From: an uncultured Verrucomicrobiae bacterium
Lineage (GTDB): Bacteria > Verrucomicrobiota > Verrucomicrobiia > Limisphaerales > DSYF01
Length of the DNA: 64,000 bases
Reading direction: 5' to 3'
Assembly: GCA_963751435.1 (NCBI GenBank)
Contig: CAVVUP010000028.1
Span: forward strand, 42,608 to 106,607
In this document: one piece after another, positions 54,866 through 63,760 of the stretch
How the letters are laid out: the number at the start of each line of letters is the position of its first letter
Position numbering within the stretch: position 1 is the first letter of the stretch
Notes under the pieces: model-generated
The model's input: the letters and a program-made list of their open reading frames with translations, nothing else
What the model was told of the DNA's origin: nothing
The model's database searches: none
Position numbers and translations under genes: made by a program

Positions 54866-56127
54866 CTATTTTGAGATGTCGAAGCACGCACCCTCCGTGG
54901 TGCTGCGGACGTAAAGGCGTCCGTCGCTGACGATGGGTGTGCTCCAGCATTTACCGCCCAACACCTTGGCCCGCGCGATCTGCGTGTACTTCTCAGGCGT
55001 CGGTTTCACCATGACGATTTCCCCGTAGTCCGTCAGGGCGATCAACCGGCCATCGACCAGGACGACATTGCCCATGCCGAATCCTTGCTGTTCCCAGACA
55101 TCCTCGCCGGTCATCAGGTTGATGCACTTGAGCGGGGCGGTGGCGTGCCGGTTGTGGTTGAAGATGCCGTAGACATAGCCTTCGTGAATTACCGGCGTGC
55201 TCCAATGGTTGAGCTGTTTGTTGGGCGTCCGCCAGACCTCCTCGCTGGACCACCGGTCGCCCGTCTTGCGAATCCGGTAAACCCCCGCTCCCACACCATA
55301 TCCCTGCGACACGTAAACCAGATCCCCGGACACAACCGGGGAAATCGCGCGCGAGGTCCGGTAGGGATACTGCTCTCGCCAGAGGGCTTTGCCCGACTTG
55401 GCCTCCACCCCAACCAGGCCGCTTTGTGTAAAGAAGATCACCTGGCGTACCCCATGGAGGGTGGCGGGTGTGGGGGTGGAATGGGTCATGCCGTCATCCT
55501 CAGACTTCCACACCAGGTTTCCCGTGGCCTTCTCGAACGCAAGCAACGCCTCCCCCGCTCCACCCCCATAAACATAAACCACCCCCCCGTCCACCACCGG
55601 CGATGCCGCGCTCTGCCAGGGGATGTTCTTGCCATGGAAATCCTTGAGCACATCCACGGTCCAAACCGGCTTGCCGGAGGCGGCATCGAAACACAATAAC
55701 TTCATTTGCGACGAATAGGCGTAGACCCGATCCCCATCCACGCTCGGTGTCGACCGCGGTCCGTCCCCCCCTGGTTGTGGGGCGCGCCGGAGTCGCCACC
55801 GCCTTGATAGCTGGCTGCGCACAAAGGTTGAAACCACAGTTCCTTTCCGGTGCCCGCGTCGACCGCCACGACCCCTTCCTGATGAACGGAGTCGATGTTC
55901 CGTCGGACCAGCGTGTAAGCGCGTCCACCGCCCACCGCCAGCGAACTGAAACCGGTGTTGAACGGCCTGCGCCACACCTCGCGCGGCCCTCCGCCGGGCC
56001 ACACGCCGGCGATCTTCTCGGGGGACTGGTTGTTGAAGGTGGGACCGTGATACTGGGGCCAATCCGCGGGAACTCCCGTGGTGCCAAGCAGGAGGAGCAG
56101 CAGCAGGATGGGAGGGATGCGATTCAT
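54866..56127 (-). pseudogene. PQQ-like beta-propeller repeat protein (BamB-like fold), one frameshift near 55785
   Basis: The N-terminus comes from ORF 55702..56676 (MNRIPPILLLLLLLGTTGVPADWPQYHGP...GKELWFQ...YQGGGDSGA). The rest comes from ORF 54866..56173 (PQPGGDGPRSTPSVDGDRVYAYSSQMKLLCFDAASGKPVW...). The junction lies in a GC run next to a C homopolymer. Confidence 0.75.
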
Positions 56128-56319
56128 GATGTTGGTCGAAAACTGCTGAAACGATGACGCAACATCGGGACAAGTCAAACTCTTGAACCCCGCGCTCCCG
56201 GCGCCGGATTCACTTTCCCACCGCTCCCCTCCGCCCCGCCGTGCGCCAAAAAATTCCTCGAATCGGGGGTTGACAGGCAAAACCGCATTCATCAACTTAT
56301 CCGCATCCGTTGATACGAC

Positions 56320-56440
56320 GGACTCATAAGGAGTGGCTGAGGGATCTGGCCCTGTGAAGCCACGGCAACCGGTTGCGGCGCGTCTCGCAATGGCTAGGTG
56401 CCAAATCCAGCCCGGCCCGTTGCCGGGAAAGATGAGGAGA
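56320..56440 (+). promoter_or_regulatory. SAM-I (S-box) riboswitch aptamer
   Basis: The sequence is ctcataaggagtggctgagggatctggccctgtgaagccacggcaacc...ggtgccaaatccagc...gaaagatgag. It matches the conserved S-box blocks: cUUAUcaAGAG-GG-GGAGGGA-UGGCCC-AUGAA-CC-GGCAACC...GGUGCCAAAUCC-GC...GAAAGAUGAG. A TTGACA -35-like hexamer lies at 56270-56275 and a GGAGA Shine-Dalgarno at 56513-56517. Confidence 0.85.
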
Positions 56441-56526
56441 GCACGCGCGACCGGTTCGCCTCTTCTCAATGCTACGGGAAGGGGCTCTTTGCTGCCCAAC
56501 TTCCCCCAGACGCGGAGAACGACATT

Positions 56527-57789
56527 ATGCACCAGAAAACAGGCTTCATGCAGGCGTTGAAGTGTCGGGAGTGCGGAAGGGAATATCCTCTCACAGCCAA
56601 CCACGTGTGCGAATACGACTTCGGCCCACTCGAGGTCGTTTATGATTACGACCGGATCAAACGCTCCCTCAGCCATGCGATCATTGAGTCGCGTCCGAAG
56701 TCCATGTGGCGATACCGCGAGCTACTCCCAATCGCCGGCGAACCCACGGTCGGGCAGCAGGTCGGGTTTACCCCCCTGGTAAGAGCCGACCGCCTGGCTG
56801 CGCGGCTCGGGATACGCGAGCTTTGGATCAAGAATGACACGGTCAATTACCCGACGCTTTCCTTCAAGGATCGCGTGGTCAGCGTGGCGTTGAGCCGCTC
56901 GAAGGAACTGGGTTTCAAGGTGGTGGCCTGCGCTTCCACCGGTAACCTGGCCAACTCCGTTGCCGCGAATGCCGCCTCGGCTGGTTTGAAGGCTTACGTG
57001 TTCATTCCCTCGGACCTCGAGCAGGGCAAGGTGCTCAATTCGCTCATTTACGGCGCCCGGGTGGTGGGGATCAAAGGACACTACGACGAGGTCAACCGGC
57101 TGTGTGCGGAGATCGCCGGCAAGTTCGGCTGGGCCTTTGTCAACGTGAACATGCGCCCCTACTATGCGGAGGGCTCCAAGAGCATGGGCTACGAGATTGC
57201 CGAGCAACTGGGATGGAAGGTGCCGCAGCACACCGTCATTCCCATGGCCTCGGGTTCACTGCTGACCAAAATCCACAAAGCCTACCAGGAATTGGCCAAG
57301 CTCGGGTTGGTGGAGGACACACCGCACCACATCCACGGGGCGCAGGCGACGGGCTGCTCGCCGATCTCGACGGCGCATAAAGCCGGGCTGGATTTCTTCA
57401 AGCCGGTCAAACCGAACACCATCGCCAAGTCTCTGGCCATCGGGACCCCTGCGGACGGTTTTTACGCCCTGCGCGTGATGAGCGAAACGCAGGGGGCGGC
57501 CGAGGACGTCACCGATGATGAGATTCGCGAAGGGATCCGGTTGCTGGCGGAATGCGAGGGCATTTTTGCCGAAACCGCCGGGGGCGTCACGGTGGGCGTG
57601 GCCAAGAAACTGATTGCCTCCGGCAGGATTCCGTCCGATGAATCAGCCGTGCTGTGCATCACCGGTCATGGGTTGAAGACGCTCGATGCCGTGGTGGGCC
57701 ATGTCGGCCACGCGGCGGAAATCAAACCCAGCCTGCGCGAATTCGAGGCCCTGACGGCCCATGAAGACAACACCTTGGTAAACGCCTGA
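56527..57789 (+). CDS. Threonine synthase-family PLP enzyme with N-terminal zinc-ribbon (ThrC-like; candidate O-phosphohomoserine-dependent homocysteine synthase)
   Basis: It runs from MHQKTGFMQALKCRECGREYPLTANHVCEYDFGPLEVVYDYD. It has the PLP lysine region NYPTLSFKDRVVSVAL and ACASTGNLANSVAANAA. It lies directly downstream of the S-box riboswitch. Confidence 0.8.
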   Translation: MHQKTGFMQALKCRECGREYPLTANHVCEYDFGPLEVVYDYDRIKRSLSHAIIESRPKSMWRYRELLPIAGEPTVGQQVGFTPLVRADRLAARLGIRELWIKNDTVNYPTLSFKDRVVSVALSRSKELGFKVVACASTGNLANSVAANAASAGLKAYVFIPSDLEQGKVLNSLIYGARVVGIKGHYDEVNRLCAEIAGKFGWAFVNVNMRPYYAEGSKSMGYEIAEQLGWKVPQHTVIPMASGSLLTKIHKAYQELAKLGLVEDTPHHIHGAQATGCSPISTAHKAGLDFFKPVKPNTIAKSLAIGTPADGFYALRVMSETQGAAEDVTDDEIREGIRLLAECEGIFAETAGGVTVGVAKKLIASGRIPSDESAVLCITGHGLKTLDAVVGHVGHAAEIKPSLREFEALTAHEDNTLVNA

Positions 57790-57791
57790 TT

Positions 57792-58067
57792 ATGTCAAAG
57801 AAAGTCCGCATCCCCACCCCGCTGCGCAAACTCACCAACAACGAGGAACTCGTCGAGGTGTCCGGCTCCACCGTCGGCGAGATCATCGCCGAGCTCCAGA
57901 CCCGTTACCCCGGGTTTCAGGAGCGTTTGCTGGATGAAAACGGCCAGATCCGTCGTTTCGTGAATGTGTACGTCAACGAGGAAGACGTGCGCTTCCTGAA
58001 CAACCAAAACACGGTGCTGAAAGAAGGCGACGAGGTCAGCATCATTCCCGCCATTGCCGGGGGATAG
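57792..58067 (+). CDS. MoaD/ThiS-family ubiquitin-like sulfur-carrier protein (C-terminal Gly-Gly)
   Basis: 91-aa ORF ending ...GDEVSIIPAIAGG-stop. The start is 2 nt after the ThrC-like stop. Confidence 0.8.
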   Translation: MSKKVRIPTPLRKLTNNEELVEVSGSTVGEIIAELQTRYPGFQERLLDENGQIRRFVNVYVNEEDVRFLNNQNTVLKEGDEVSIIPAIAGG

Positions 58068-58074
58068 ACTCCAC

Positions 58075-58371
58075 ATGCCTGCCAAACCGAAATCCGTCCG
58101 CAACCGGGTCCGAACCACGCCCGCCACACCGCAGCAGACGCGGCTGTGGCTGATGTATCCTGCCCGCCTGATCCGCGAGCCCATCATCTGGAAGCTTGGG
58201 CGCAAGTTCCCCGTGGTCACCAACATCCGCCAGGTCAGTGTGACCGACGAAATCGGGATCGTGTGCCTCGAAATCGACGGCAAACGTCAGGATGTGAAGA
58301 AGGCCATCCGCTGGCTGGAAAACCTCGGTGTGAGCGTCGAACCCGTCGAAATCAACGTGATCGAGAGCTGA
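58075..58371 (+). CDS. NIL-domain protein
   Basis: 98 aa from the ATG at 58075. RLWLMYPARLIREPIIWKLGRKFPVVTNIRQVSVTDEIGIVCLEIDGKRQDVKKAIRWLENLGVSVEPVE resembles the NIL domain found at the C-terminus of MetN and in methanogen homocysteine-synthesis proteins. This is from memory, not searched. Confidence 0.6.
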   Translation: MPAKPKSVRNRVRTTPATPQQTRLWLMYPARLIREPIIWKLGRKFPVVTNIRQVSVTDEIGIVCLEIDGKRQDVKKAIRWLENLGVSVEPVEINVIES

Positions 58372-58383
58372 TCGCGGCCTGCG

Positions 58384-58785
58384 TCAGTGGCGCTTGTGGC
58401 GCTTGACCTTGAGCTGGGCCAGCGAGTTGGACATGGCCGCCTTCAGCACGGCTTCCTCGTCGGTCGAAACCGTTTCCCGGAGCCGTTCCTCGGCACGACG
58501 CCGTGCTTCCTCGACTTTCGCCTCGTCGATGTTGTCCGCGCGGATCGCCATATCGGTCAGGATGGCCACACGCTCCGCGGTAATCTCGGCGAAACCCGCG
58601 CCCACTGCCAGGAGGATCTCTTCTCCGCCCCTGCGCACCGCGATTTCGCCGGGGACCAGCTGGGTCAGCAGCGGCACGTGGTTGGGGTAAATGCCCATCT
58701 CGCCCTCGATCCCCGGCAGCGTGACCATGTCGACGTTGTCCGAGTAGGTGACGGCTTCGGGGGTGATGATTTCCAGTTTGAGCAT
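58384..58785 (-). CDS. atpC: F1 ATP synthase epsilon subunit
   Basis: It reads MLKLEIITPEAVTYSDNVDMVTLPGIEGEMGIYPNHVPLLTQL... and follows atpD. Confidence 0.9.
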   Translation of the reverse strand: MLKLEIITPEAVTYSDNVDMVTLPGIEGEMGIYPNHVPLLTQLVPGEIAVRRGGEEILLAVGAGFAEITAERVAILTDMAIRADNIDEAKVEEARRRAEERLRETVSTDEEAVLKAAMSNSLAQLKVKRHKRH

Positions 58786-58866
58786 GGCCGGGGTCTCGCT
58801 TCCTTGTTCACGCAACGCGGAGCACGCAATGCCGCCTCTGGGGCATAAGGTGGTGCGTCGCGTGCA

Positions 58867-60282
<1,416 letters not shown>

Positions 60283-60313: not shown

Positions 60314-61192
60314 TCAGCCCAGCGCCATCTGGGCGGTCGTGATCTCGAGCAACTCGCTCGTGATGTTGGCCTGACGCAGTTTGTTGTAATCCAACGTGAG
60401 ATCCTTGATGAGCTGCTTGGCATTGTCGGTGGCATTCTTCATGGCCACCATGCGCGCGCTCTGCTCGCTGGCCTTCGCGTCGAGCAGAAGCTGGTAAATC
60501 GCGTAGTTGACGAAATGCGGCAGCATCGCACCCAACACGTGCCGGGCGTCCGGCTCGAAGAGGAATTCCCTTCCCACCCGGTCTTCCACCAGGGGCTTGC
60601 CTTCGGCTTGGGCCCCCGGCTTGAACCGGCTGATGTCCGACAACGGAAGCAGGCGAAAGCCCTCGGGCTTCTGGCTGATGGTGTTGTAGAACCGGTTGTA
60701 CATCACCAGCACCTCGTCCACTTCGCCCTGACTGAACAGTTCCTGAACGCACTTGGAAATGGCCCGTGACTCGGCAAAGGTCGGCGTGTCGCTGTAAGTG
60801 AAATCCGCAGCCAGATTCCGCTTGGTCCGCCCGATAAACTGGGCGCCCTTGCGCCCGGCGCAGATGAACACCGTGTTCTCGCGGTCCATCTTGGCAACCT
60901 CCCGCAGCAGGTTGGCATTGAGCGCACCGCAGAGCCCCTTGTCCGAGGTGATTAGGAGCACGCCCGTCTTGCGGACCTCGCGCTTCTCGATCAACGGATG
61001 CGTCAGGTCTACCAGGTCCCCACCGAGGTCCGCGAGAATGCTGAGCATCAACTGAGCATACGGACGCCCCGCCAGGGCGGCCTGCTGGGCACGACGCATC
61101 TTGGACGAAGCCACCATCTGCATCGCCTTGGTGATCTTAGACGTGTTCGTGATCGACTTGATGCGTCGACGCAAATCGCGTGTGCTGGCCAT
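60314..61192 (-). CDS. atpG: F1 ATP synthase gamma subunit
   Basis: 292-aa ORF. It has MASTRDLRRRIKSITNTSKITKAMQMVASSKMRRAQ and the C-terminal ITSELLEITTAQMAL. Confidence 0.95.
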   Translation of the reverse strand: MASTRDLRRRIKSITNTSKITKAMQMVASSKMRRAQQAALAGRPYAQLMLSILADLGGDLVDLTHPLIEKREVRKTGVLLITSDKGLCGALNANLLREVAKMDRENTVFICAGRKGAQFIGRTKRNLAADFTYSDTPTFAESRAISKCVQELFSQGEVDEVLVMYNRFYNTISQKPEGFRLLPLSDISRFKPGAQAEGKPLVEDRVGREFLFEPDARHVLGAMLPHFVNYAIYQLLLDAKASEQSARMVAMKNATDNAKQLIKDLTLDYNKLRQANITSELLEITTAQMALG

Positions 61193-61194
61193 GG

Positions 61195-61767
61195 TTATGT
61201 CCTGGCGCGCCCGGCGACTCGATACCGGGGCGCGGTCTCTCTGACGTGAAATCCGATTTCGCGGCGGCTCGCTTCGCCGGTTCCCATCAACCGGCGGATC
61301 GTTTCGAAAACCTCCGCCAGGGACTGGTCGTGTCCGGCCACCCGCTCCTCCAGGTCCGCCAGCTTGGCGGCCAGTTGCCGATGCGTGCTGAGGTAATCGC
61401 GCATCCGGACGAATGCCCTGACCACTTGGACACTGGCTTGGACGGCGAGCGGGCTGTTGAGCACGCTGGCCAGCATGATGGCGCCGTGCTCGGTGAAAAC
61501 GATGGGACGATAACGCGATCCTCCTCGCCCCTTTGAGGTCACAAATTGTGACCTCAAAGCCGCAAACTCCTGAACATCAAGCTCGAAGGCGAAATCTGTC
61601 GGGAAACGATAAGCATTGCGCCTCACAGCCTGCTTGAGGTGTTTGGTGCTCACCCCGTAGATCCTTGCAAGGTCCGAATCCAGCATGACCCGCAGTCCGC
61701 GGAACTCATGGATCAACCGATCCAAGTCCGCCGATCCCTTTCTCCCCTCTAGACTGGCCATATACAT
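61195..61767 (-). CDS. ORF6N-domain (KilA-N-related DNA-binding) protein inserted between atpA and atpG
   Basis: It reads FRGLRVMLDSDLARIYGVSTKHLKQAVRRNAYRFPTDFAFEL...LRSQFVTSKGRGGSRYRPIVFTEHGAIMLASVLNSPLAVQASVQVVRAFVRMR, followed by a coiled-coil tail. The start is uncertain (ATGs at 61800, 61767 and 61761; the track uses the TTG at 61812). The stop is 2 nt before the atpG ATG. Confidence 0.8.
   Translation of the reverse strand: MYMASLEGRKGSADLDRLIHEFRGLRVMLDSDLARIYGVSTKHLKQAVRRNAYRFPTDFAFELDVQEFAALRSQFVTSKGRGGSRYRPIVFTEHGAIMLASVLNSPLAVQASVQVVRAFVRMRDYLSTHRQLAAKLADLEERVAGHDQSLAEVFETIRRLMGTGEASRREIGFHVRETAPRYRVAGRART
61531..61559. repeat. Perfect 29-bp palindrome (14+1+14) inside the ORF6N coding sequence
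   Basis: I checked ctttgaggtcacaa-a-ttgtgacctcaaag base by base. It encodes LRSQFVTSK. Confidence 0.95.
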
Positions 61768-61808
61768 GTTTGAATCAACCACCTGCAACCGGGGCACCAT
61801 GATCGGGC

Positions 61809-63346
61809 TCAACGGTAGGTCTGCTTGAATTCCGTCACCGCCGCTTTCAACGCCGCGCTCAATGCGTCGTCCAAGGCGCCTTTGGCACGGATCTGATCCA
61901 GCAGGTCGGTTTTGCGGGTCGTGAGGTAATCGCTGAGTTTCGCCTGGAAATCTTTCACCTTGTCCACCGGGACGTCGTCCAGCAGTTCATTCTGGACCGT
62001 CCACAGCGTGGCCACCTGCACCTCGACGGTGATCGGGCGGTATTGCGGCTGTTTGAACAGTTCCACAATGCGTTTGCCCCGCTCCAGCCGCTTCTGAGTG
62101 GCCGCGTCCAAGTCCGATCCAAACTGGGCAAAGGCGGCCAGCTCGCGGTACTGCGCCAGCTCCAGCTTGATGCGACCGGCCACCTGCTTCATGGCCTTCA
62201 CCTGCGCCGCCGAGCCCACGCGGGACACGGAGATACCGACGTTGATCGCCGGACGAACGCCCTGGTAGAACAGGTCGGTTTCCAGGAAGATCTGGCCGTC
62301 CGTGATCGAGATCACGTTGGTCGGGATGTAGGCGGACACGTCGCCCGCCTGCGTTTCAATGATCGGGCAGCGCGGTCAGTGAACCGTTTCCATTCGCCTC
62401 ATTCAACCGGGCGGACCGCTCCAGCAATCGGCTGTGCAGGTAGAACACGTCGCCGGGATACGCCTCGCGACCGGACGGACGTTTCAACACCAGCGACACC
62501 TGCCGGTAGGCCTGCGCTTGCTTGGACAAGTCATCGTAAATGATCAGCGCGTCCATCCCGTTGTCCATGAACCATTCGCCCATCGGCGCAGCCGGCGAAG
62601 GGCGCGAGGTACTGGCTGGTGGCGGAGTCGGACGCGGCGGCCACGACAACGATGCGAATACTTCAGCGCACCGTGCTCCTCCAGCGTCGGCGATGACGCG
62701 CGCGATGTTCGACTGCTTCTGCCCAATGGCGACGTAGATGGAGTAGAGCGGACGGTAATCCTTGTCGCCGCGCTCCTCGGCCACCTGGTTCAGGCGCGCG
62801 TTGCTGATCATCGTGTCCACGCAGACGGTGGTCTTGCCGGTGGAACGGTCGCCGATGATCAATTCGCGCTGGCCACGGCCGATCGGGAATCATCGCGTCG
62901 ACGGCCATGATGCCGGTCTGGACCGGCTGGCTGACGGACTTCCGTTTGATGATGCCAGGGGCGATCTTCTCGACCGGATAGTAGGTGTCGGTCTGGATCG
63001 GGCCCTTGCCATCGACCGGGCGGCCGAGCGTATCCACCACGCGGCCGAGCATGACCTTGCCGACGGGCACGGAAAGCAGCTTCCCGGTGGTCTTGACCTC
63101 CAGCCCTTCCTTGACGCCGAGGTAATCGCCCAGGATCACGGCGCCCACCTCGGTTTCCTCGAGGTTCAACGCCAGCCCCATGACCCCGTGTCCGAAGTCG
63201 ATCATCTCGTTCAGCATCACGTCGGCCAGGCCTTCGATCTTGGCCACGCCGTCGCCGACTTCACGGACGACCCCGACATTTTGCTTCAAGGTGGTCTGTT
63301 TGACCCCGGCGATTTGGGCTTCAATTTCCTGCAACAGATTGCTCAT
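61809..63346 (-). pseudogene. atpA: F1 ATP synthase alpha subunit, reading frame broken at >=5 places between ~62345 and ~62885
   Basis: There are three main ORF pieces (62663..63346, 62356..62862, 61809..62339) plus a 62544..62726 piece ([10 protein letters not shown]). My hand translation restores AVDAMIP|[18 protein letters not shown]...ARVIA|[11 protein letters not shown]|[23 protein letters not shown]|[23 protein letters not shown]...SLTALP|[28 protein letters not shown] if single extra bases are removed. Confidence 0.9.
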
Positions 63347-63367: not shown

Positions 63368-63760
63368 CTAAAAACTTTGCTCCAGCGCGGCCAGGCGCGC
63401 TTCCACGCTGCCGTCATACACATCGCTGCCCACCCGGATGCGCAACCCGCCCAGCAGGTCCGGGTTCCGGATGAACTCGAACGTCAGGCCCGCTCCATAA
63501 AGCACCTCCAGCCGGGCTTTGACCTGGTCCTGTTGGGCGGCATCGAGCGGCGTCGGGCTTTCCACACGGGCCGAGCGCCGGTCGACCTCCAGTTTCACGA
63601 GTCGCTGGAAGTGGTTGAGGGAGGCCAGCCAGCCGCGCGGCTTCTGTTCCAGCACCAGGCGCACCGTGTCGCGCACCCGGGCCTCGTCCAGGCGGCCCTG
63701 CACGAAGCAGCGTCGATAGAGCTGCTTGCCGTCGCGGCGGGATTGTTTGGAACTCTTCAT
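63368..63760 (-). CDS. atpH: F1 ATP synthase delta (OSCP) subunit, short form
   Basis: 130-aa ORF. It has the C-terminal OSCP motif NPDLLGGLRIRVGSDVYDGSVEARL and sits between atpF and atpA. Confidence 0.75.
   Translation of the reverse strand: MKSSKQSRRDGKQLYRRCFVQGRLDEARVRDTVRLVLEQKPRGWLASLNHFQRLVKLEVDRRSARVESPTPLDAAQQDQVKARLEVLYGAGLTFEFIRNPDLLGGLRIRVGSDVYDGSVEARLAALEQSF

Follow-up and report, generated by a model that had tools for sequence, protein, structure and literature searches.

An ORF6N-domain gene with a conserved internal palindrome, probably an old passenger, at the atpA–atpG junction of verrucomicrobial ATP synthase operons

We analyzed a 64,000-nt stretch of DNA from an uncultured Verrucomicrobiae bacterium (contig CAVVUP010000028.1; hereafter the window, numbered from its first letter), which ends in an F1Fo ATP synthase operon with the minus-strand gene order atpF, atpH, atpA, an open reading frame (ORF) with an ORF6N domain, atpG, atpD and atpC. 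A preliminary description of this DNA had reported that an ORF6N-type gene of ~190 amino acids (aa) fills the gap between atpA and atpG, which agrees with the Pfam match of the ORF and with a length of 190 aa from the ATG at 61767. Our analysis establishes the identity of this gene, its recurrence at the same site in other genomes, the monophyly of the copies found there, purifying selection on the protein, a patchy distribution, and the conservation, with covariation, of a palindrome in its coding sequence. The features of the gene, followed by its neighbors, are given below.

61195–61767, minus strand: ORF6N-domain gene from its probable start, 190 aa (MYMASLEG...RART); supported by Pfam PF10543, PADLOC PDC-S05, the alignment and the ratio of nonsynonymous to synonymous divergence (dN/dS)
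61195–61812, minus strand: longest ORF, 205 aa from a TTG, filling the atpA–atpG gap
61768–61812, minus strand: leader, or 5′ extension of the longest ORF; keeps only a decayed half of the leader palindrome of relatives
61531–61559: perfect 29-bp palindrome, CTTTGAGGTCACAA-T-TTGTGACCTCAAAG, in the ORF6N coding sequence, encoding LRSQFVTSK (residues 71–79)
61453–61734, minus strand: N-terminal alpha/beta DNA-binding (ORF6N) domain, residues 12–105 (Pfam; AlphaFold2 predicted local distance difference test [pLDDT] 84–89 in the core)
61288–61452, minus strand: long single helix, residues 106–160, predicted coiled coil, putatively for dimerization (AlphaFold2)
61198–61287, minus strand: C-terminal tail with a conserved EIGFHVRE..YR motif and a basic end, holding the atpG translation-initiation region; I171, G172, E177 and Y182 invariant in a 48-sequence alignment
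61200–61203, minus strand: AGGA, Shine-Dalgarno-like, 7 nt 5′ of the atpG ATG and within the last ORF6N codons (read from the sequence)
61809–63346, minus strand: atpA (F1 alpha), upstream flank; Pfam domains split over separate ORFs, the frame changing at least four times within 62365–62889
60314–61192, minus strand: atpG (F1 gamma), downstream flank; Pfam ATP-synt, E = 2.9e-92, no frame break
63777 and past the window end, minus strand: atpF, no frame break in its visible 3′ part
63368–63760, minus strand: atpH, no frame break
58867–60279, minus strand: atpD, no frame break
58384–58815, minus strand: atpC, no frame break

Both junctions are tight. At the left one, the TTG of the longest ORF (61812–61810) overlaps the atpA stop codon TGA (61811–61809), and at the right one the stop codon TAA (61197–61195) is followed by CC and then by the atpG ATG (61192), a gap of 2 nt; these borders and the AGGA inside the coding end can be read directly from the sequence, as described earlier. 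Because homologues are mostly 190 aa long and begin with M[YFV]MA, translation probably starts at the ATG at 61767, leaving a 41-nt leader after atpA; the start ATGTATATGGCC is identical at locus L099. No sigma-70-like promoter or intrinsic terminator was predicted on the minus strand within or beside the gene, and since it has no such site of its own and its junctions are tight, cotranscription with the atp genes would be the natural reading. The lower GC content noted earlier at its 5′ end proved modest (0.55–0.58 in the 5′ half versus 0.60–0.67 in the flanks), and GC at third codon positions (GC3) was 0.71, compared with 0.82–0.87 in the atp genes and 0.77–0.78 in the other long window genes, an offset that recurred in 10 of 10 relatives examined. 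Neither a second ORF6N copy nor a second palindrome was found in the window (tblastn; pattern search with ≤3 mismatches). A sub-threshold Rfam match to gut-2 RNA in the ORF6N 3′ region (61264–61299, minus strand; 21.3 bits versus a gathering cut-off of 39.8, E = 0.065) is probably due to chance.

The 205-aa ORF matched Pfam ORF6N (PF10543) with 108.8 bits against a gathering cut-off of 27.8 (E = 1.7e-31; model positions 3–86 of 86 over ORF residues 34–117), which relates its N-terminal domain to the KilA-N/Bro-N/Rha group of phage and mobile-element DNA-binding domains; the match to Rha itself (PF09669) stayed below threshold (20.4 versus 29.9 bits). That ORF6N proteins are typical of phage, mobile or defense contexts, as the preliminary description held, is borne out by plasmid and phage homologues, which are 34–48% identical to the window protein and share the LRSQ..TS...FTE.G motifs with it, and by matches to PHROG and PADLOC models. 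The PHROG matches are confined to the N-domains of anti-repressors, and no C-terminal Pfam domain was found. The window gene lies not in a prophage, plasmid or integrative element but inside the F1Fo operon with atp genes as neighbors, and in place of the ORF6C, ANT or KilA-C effector domain of an Ant/ORF6-type phage anti-repressor its product has only the long helix and basic tail. Three PADLOC models of the defense-candidate class PDC-S05 were matched (E = 1.8e-49, 1.4e-45 and 3e-33), the only assayed representative of which, described as carrying a Virulence_RhuM domain, has been reported to lower plating in E. coli by a factor of ~1000 for T7 and T5 (Nat Commun 2026;17:1427, PMC12881386). 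The window gene, by sequence a candidate member of this class, resembles it in being stand-alone and patchily distributed, but differs in occupying an essential housekeeping operon rather than a defense island.

The AlphaFold2 model built from the 48-sequence alignment, whose 42 invariant columns are all present in the window protein, had a mean pLDDT of 69 and a disordered C-terminal tail, and the palindrome-encoded residues 71–79 fell at the end of a helix (65–74) and in a low-confidence Gly/Arg-rich loop. The best Foldseek matches in the PDB, none of them significant, were winged-helix-like domains and DNA binders of the MerR, RacA and ParA-partition types with long helices; a PDB sequence search returned only weak coiled-coil-type noise. 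The family is very large: a protein search with the window protein gave thousands of homologues (at least 8,000 candidates), and we counted 29,508 clusters at 50% identity with E ≤ 1e-3, or 571 with E ≤ 1e-30. Outside atp operons, some members are single genes amid housekeeping genes (between GAPDH and holA, or beside a GT4 glycosyltransferase or DUF1501 gene) and others adjoin mobile-element or conflict genes (RadC, Fic, Bro-N/ANT, BCS1-type AAA).

To place the locus among relatives, one genome per GTDB species was scanned with the window AtpG, yielding 80 atpG loci, ~66 of them verrucomicrobial; even the closest, all Verrucomicrobiota, had an AtpG only 65% identical to that of the window. 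An ORF6N gene occupied the atpA–atpG junction in 6 of the ~66 verrucomicrobial loci (L001, L002, L009, L013, L041 and L043), in operon orientation and with 52–61% protein identity to the window copy. In most of the remaining loci 0–100 nt separate atpA from atpG, consistent with the earlier statement that the two are normally adjacent, so the gene is foreign to the canonical operon. Relatives do not carry it universally, and it lacks the conserved presence of a core or accessory operon member such as atpI. Hidden Markov model (HMM) searches of six-frame translations of all 80 loci detected no ORF6N remnants at empty junctions or in flanks, and the long gaps of L038, L044 and L045, considered as sites of decayed copies, hold unrelated ORFs. 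Exact look-up of the window protein itself (P0001) returned no record, and that of six homologues from the protein search (P0030, P0018, P0009, P0113, P0026 and P0023; 56–63% identical) placed 6 of 6 between atpA and atpG, with junctions of just 0–43 nt, on contigs from JGI, ENA, NCBI and Logan. The same arrangement, with differing sequences, was present in >30 independent contigs from these four sources.

In a neighbor-joining tree of 55 full-length proteins (13 atp-resident and 42 others from a palindrome-based metagenome sample, plasmids and one phage), all 13 atp-resident copies formed a single clade. Estimates by the Nei-Gojobori method gave dN/dS values of 0.08–0.24 for ORF6N homologue pairs, similar to atpG and far from the ~1 expected of an unconserved protein, which the preliminary description had raised; purifying selection on the protein is strong. 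In all pairs that allowed an estimate, the synonymous divergence (dS) of ORF6N equaled or exceeded that of its neighbor atpG, so the copies have been diverging at least as long as the operons. The insertion is thus old and has largely codiverged with the operon: of the invasion proposed earlier, the entry of a gene foreign to the canonical atp operon stands, and a recent or unique event does not.

Despite this age, carriers are scattered on a tree of AtpG, AtpA and AtpD, with sisters lacking the gene (L001/L048, L002/L007, L013/L020 and a Udaeobacter trio versus L030). The atp-resident clade spans two orders, between which AtpG identity is just ~57%, and its Udaeobacter members are nested among ~20 empty Chthoniobacterales operons. 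As a side observation, the metagenome-assembled genome MFD02199.bin.2.8 yields two F-type atp operons (L007 and L031, with AtpG 63% and 57% identical to the window), reflecting either a second operon or bin contamination. Comparing junctions in relatives, as had been proposed earlier, shows a clean insert of 636 nt in L001 relative to L048, although the two are 91% identical in atpA and 94% in atpG at the nucleotide level. Beside the insert, the final 60 nt of atpA are only 75% identical, against 91% for the gene body, a pattern suggestive, though not proof, of allelic replacement via the conserved atp flanks. With no target-site duplication at the L001/L048 junctions, no transposase domain and no terminal inverted repeats bounding it, the ORF6N insert has none of the marks of an insertion sequence or a miniature inverted-repeat transposable element (MITE).

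Exchange between copies and decay are also visible. Outside a 230-nt tract, loci L041 and L101 are ~95% identical over the operon; the tract itself, comprising the ORF6N 5′ half and the palindrome, is only 72–77% identical and resembles the L081/L103 type, indicating gene conversion between ORF6N copies. For the pair L081–L103 itself, recent horizontal transfer was considered in view of protein identities of 89% for ORF6N and 74% for AtpG, and rejected on similar dS values (0.84 and 0.69). In L043 and L180 the middle of the gene has been swapped for a GC-rich inverted-repeat element, the 5′ part and the 3′ end before atpG being retained. These replacing elements (L043:5860–5935 and L180:1085–1245), which sit just after the palindrome in two independent cases, have long terminal inverted repeats and are MITE-like. 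The atp genes remain intact in both loci, from which it follows that the gene is dispensable for ATP synthase. Among 2.9 million viral contigs there were only one close protein relative and 41 palindrome matches, so the atp-type clade is not phage-borne.

The palindrome mentioned in the preliminary description is real. Its two 14-nt arms are 100% complementary and separated by 1 nt, with 0 matches expected in shuffled sequence, and it encodes the most conserved motif of the ORF6N domain. With the peptide fixed and window codon usage applied, none of 200,000 synonymous resamplings reached 14 of 14 pairs (maximum 12, at 3.5e-5), and the actual sequence uses the rare codons AGG (3.7% of Arg codons) and, twice, TCA (5% of Ser codons). 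The palindrome is retained in 13 of 13 atp-type copies through coupled changes between the arms, the matched codons being TCA (Ser) with GTG (Val), TCG (Ser) with GCG (Ala), AGG (Arg) with ACC (Thr), AGA (Arg) with ATC (Ile), and AAG (Lys) with ACT (Thr). Plasmid-borne ORF6N genes of Bacteroides, Legionella and Sulfuricurvum have it too, as does one from a gut phage. Across 17 ORF6N genes picked independently of the palindrome, 93% of cells were paired, 6 pairs had changed on both sides, and the observed covariation was reached in 0 of 500 shuffles. The palindrome is therefore a DNA-level element under selection, maintained family-wide through compensatory changes and the use of rare codons.

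Metagenome contigs scanned for the palindrome pattern gave at least 120 stretches, and the 80 listed loci, only 3 of them atp operons, held 94 palindromes: 69 inside ORF6N at the motif, 9 in leaders (20–100 nt 5′ of the ORF6N start), 5 elsewhere near ORF6N and 11 solitary and intergenic. The solitary ones, sometimes in clusters of two or three (L123:572–596, L126:97–194, L131:249–273, L155:3202–3226, L182:3813–3880, L166:295–319 and others), had no ORF6N gene detected near them in the fetched stretches. Among atp-type genes, five carry a second palindrome in the leader directly after the atpA stop, and at L099 the leader palindrome is intact in the equivalent place, before the same start as in the window. 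Many ORF6N genes (L120, L159, L187, L188, L178, L106 and L043) contain two in-frame tandem palindromes, and the protein loop tolerates such an insertion. In these tandems (L120:722–773, L159:1224–1296, L187:724–800, L188:812–881, L178:1970–2040 and L106:2650–2737) LxSQxxTS is repeated, identically or differently, 27–70 nt apart.

Taken together, we consider it reasonably probable that the window holds a functional ~190-aa ORF6N passenger gene, a member of a single atp-junction lineage that is expressed from the atp mRNA, performs the role of its family and has a palindrome probably bound by a dimer of its protein. Such a lineage would have colonized the atpA–atpG junction once and then kept to that exact place and to the orientation of the operon, its carriers being a scattered minority among the Verrucomicrobiota. 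The gene would mostly be inherited with the operon, with occasional loss or exchange that probably proceeds by allelic replacement as the conserved atp genes on either side recombine; copies would also convert one another and sometimes decay. Expression would come by read-through of the atp mRNA with translational coupling to atpG. The role is most likely that of the family, the stand-alone candidate PDC-S05 of mobile elements and defense islands, and would lie in phage defense or mobile-element regulation rather than in ATP synthesis. In the model, the long helix probably dimerizes the protein, and the palindrome would most likely be bound by that dimer for self-recognition or autoregulation; where ORF6N genes have 5′ regions of their own, the position of the extra leader palindromes would suit an operator. 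An old passenger of selfish or defense origin is thus the best reading of the gene.

Among known systems, the closest in layout are ParB/Spo0J, whose coding sequence contains a parS palindrome, and autoregulated dimeric repressors of MerR-like architecture. The ORF6N gene likewise holds a conserved palindrome, with more copies nearby, and encodes a DNA-binding domain followed by a long, putatively dimerizing helix. The likeness to MerR-type proteins is weak (Foldseek matches to BmrR, MtaN and RacA with E > 0.6 and no sequence homology), and, in contrast to parS, the ORF6N palindrome, a predicted binding site, encodes the most conserved peptide motif of the family.

Several observations weigh against this passenger reading or parts of it. 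The structural model is moderate (mean pLDDT 69) and has no significant neighbor in the PDB (Foldseek, E > 0.6), and the window protein, unlike the validated PDC-S05 representative, has no Pfam Virulence_RhuM match. Between ORF6N and AtpG, pairwise protein identities are only weakly correlated (r = 0.49, compared with 0.88 between AtpG and AtpA); as dS shows no recent transfers, we take this to reflect vertical descent combined with conversion and occasional replacement by lateral exchange. That the gene has long been retained vertically under purifying selection could also point to a host function linked with the operon. Finally, a protein operator does not need strict arm-to-arm covariation, and base-pairing in a hairpin or cruciform fits this signature at least as well.

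The last point leads to the alternative that survives best, though we regard it as unlikely: the atp mRNA may form a hairpin at the palindrome that serves its processing or stability or controls translation between atpA and atpG, in which case the palindrome would not be a protein-binding DNA site. The sense strand can fold into a 12-bp stem (minimum free energy z-score of −3.8 over 101 nt), strict compensatory changes are a base-pairing signature, and leader copies lie 25–60 nt 5′ of ORF6N start codons. Against this, the palindrome is family-wide, occurs in many non-atp contexts and includes solo intergenic copies without fixed orientation, and its position in the middle of the ORF means that translating ribosomes would unwind the stem. 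In addition, for the three pairs left free by the search pattern, 195 of 207 were Watson-Crick, and the mismatches comprised 6 G.T and 6 A.C on the sense strand, that is, no RNA-type wobble bias and no preference for G.U. The constraint looks like one on DNA symmetry or on pairing in a DNA hairpin or cruciform. Nor does the palindrome behave as an intrinsic terminator or a repetitive extragenic palindromic-type hairpin, since it lies within a coding sequence, is not followed by a T-run and has no Rfam family.

A somewhat less probable alternative is an active homing-type element, in which the ORF6N protein, or a partner, would drive its site-specific insertion into empty operons by recognizing either the palindrome or the atpA–atpG junction. 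Free-standing homing endonuclease genes are known to wedge between conserved genes, as do the seg and mob genes of T4-like phages. Similar here are the gene-sized insert at one exact intergenic junction, its clean presence or absence in close relatives, the hint of a divergent flank in the atpA tail, and the occupation of one site by one clade in two orders, including the Udaeobacter copies amid empty operons. Tandem palindromes, together with ORF6N fragments bounded by the palindrome, would further suggest breakage and rejoining there. Such fragments occur in the leaders of complete ORF6N genes (L001:1762–1830, L002:5372–5400 and L169:2292–2414), which are homologous to the middle of ORF6N from the palindrome on (HMM positions ~66–109) and give the impression of partial copies fused at that point. 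However, searches of Pfam, NCBIfam and PDB sequences found no nuclease (GIY-YIG, HNH, LAGLIDADG or PD-(D/E)XK), recombinase or transposase domain in the protein, and empty atpA–atpG junctions yielded no common target sequence or palindrome. ORF6N dS never falls below that of atpG, pointing to long residence with no recent transfer visible rather than to recent spread, and co-conversion is hinted at by a short flank (60 nt) only.

More speculatively, ORF6N genes might be self-recognizing modules, with the atp lineage acting as a switch inside the operon: a trigger such as phage infection would cause the protein to bind its internal or leader palindrome and block transcription of atpG, atpD and atpC, and the supply of new ATP synthase would be cut off, amounting to abortive infection by energy starvation. 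In a variant of this doubtful idea, the palindrome would be a recombination site that moves single genes.

Lower still we rate domestication of the gene as a regulator of the ATP synthase operon, for instance as an autoregulated roadblock at the internal palindrome tuning atpG, atpD and atpC, or as a spacer reducing translational coupling to gamma, a sub-stoichiometric subunit. Strong purifying selection, long codivergence with the operon, a constant position and orientation, and the embedding of the atpG start in the ORF6N 3′ end would all fit, as would the retention of that 3′ end, and with it the C-terminal tail, even in the decayed copies L043 and L180. But ~90% of related operons, including those of the carriers' sisters, do without the gene, it has become a pseudogene in L043 and L180 beside intact atp genes, and dozens of unrelated contexts share the same protein architecture and palindrome. 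Moreover, a roadblock ahead of atpD would also starve the beta subunit, which is needed in the same amount as alpha. An assembly or binning artefact, a chimeric contig joining a mobile-element gene to atp genes, might be suspected from the metagenome-type assembly and the frameshifts in neighboring atpA, but is excluded by the recurrence of the arrangement in the independent contigs described above and has a negligible chance of being correct.

The frameshifts themselves deserve comment, as the preliminary description had pointed to the adjacency of the ORF6N gene and the only heavily frameshifted atp gene. The adjacency holds, with at least four shifts in atpA and none in the other atp genes; no evidence was found to link the two, and ORF6N-bearing operons elsewhere have an intact atpA. 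Comparison with the AtpA of L009 (tblastn) placed the frame changes near 62889, ~62700, ~62590 and 62365, giving three frame-shifted segments and an internal shift. Amino-acid identity in the shifted segments is 58–79% and similarity is intact in every frame, so a few indels of single-base scale account for them, two being an extra C in CCCGATC. A methylation motif was considered as a possible cause, although other GATCGGG sites are unaffected. Either local sequencing or consensus error or very recent inactivation would explain the atpA shifts. Most other long window genes are intact. On the minus strand at 54866–56676, overlapping ORFs (54866–56173 and 55702–56676) read as the N- and C-terminal halves of one secreted beta-propeller-type protein, possibly a single gene split by a second indel outside atpA.

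Beyond the atpC end of the operon, the window region 56398–58371 holds a pair of 463-aa and 91-aa ORFs plus a 105-aa ORF, which match genes beside atpC in relatives; in L102:7401–8573 and L103:6083–6754, PALP (ThrC/CysM-like), ThiS-like and NIL-domain genes adjoin atpC in synteny conserved with the window.

Small selfish-looking genes in highly expressed operons are known from PD-(D/E)XK 'GxxExxY' proteins in 23S rRNA intervening sequences, and gaps in the atp operons of relatives also hold small genes other than ORF6N. We found a PDDEXK_3 (GxxExxY-type) gene between atpA and atpG in L045 (4098–4559) and a 210-aa unannotated ORF between atpG and atpD in L010 (3732–4364). The atpG–atpD gap of L080 (6871–8603) holds a 381-aa ORF with an AAA-like P-loop, recognized by eye, and a Pfam-confirmed DUF4276 gene. 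Further examples are ORFs of ~153 aa with a signal-peptide-like N-terminus in atp gaps of L053 (5493–5957) and L056 (6885–7346) and an 87-aa ORF in an operon gap of L009 (6920–7183). The L045 and L080 genes belong to different families, none with the one-clade, one-site pattern of ORF6N. The atp operon junctions may be recurrent landing sites, or safe harbors, for small genes.

The ORF6N family and its status as a defense candidate are already known. No earlier account of the atp-resident lineage or of the intragenic palindrome was found in the literature on ORF6N, on KilA-N with palindromes, or on atpA/atpG of Verrucomicrobia. If upheld, a site-faithful, long-lived passenger lineage in an essential and highly expressed operon would offer a natural system for the persistence, movement and loss of single genes that lack a recombinase, and atp operon gaps holding other small genes of mobile or defense type may prove to be recurrent safe harbors. 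The intragenic palindrome, found from Bacteroides to Verrucomicrobia, would likewise give a direct hypothesis, that of a self-binding or recombination site, for a very large family of defense candidates.

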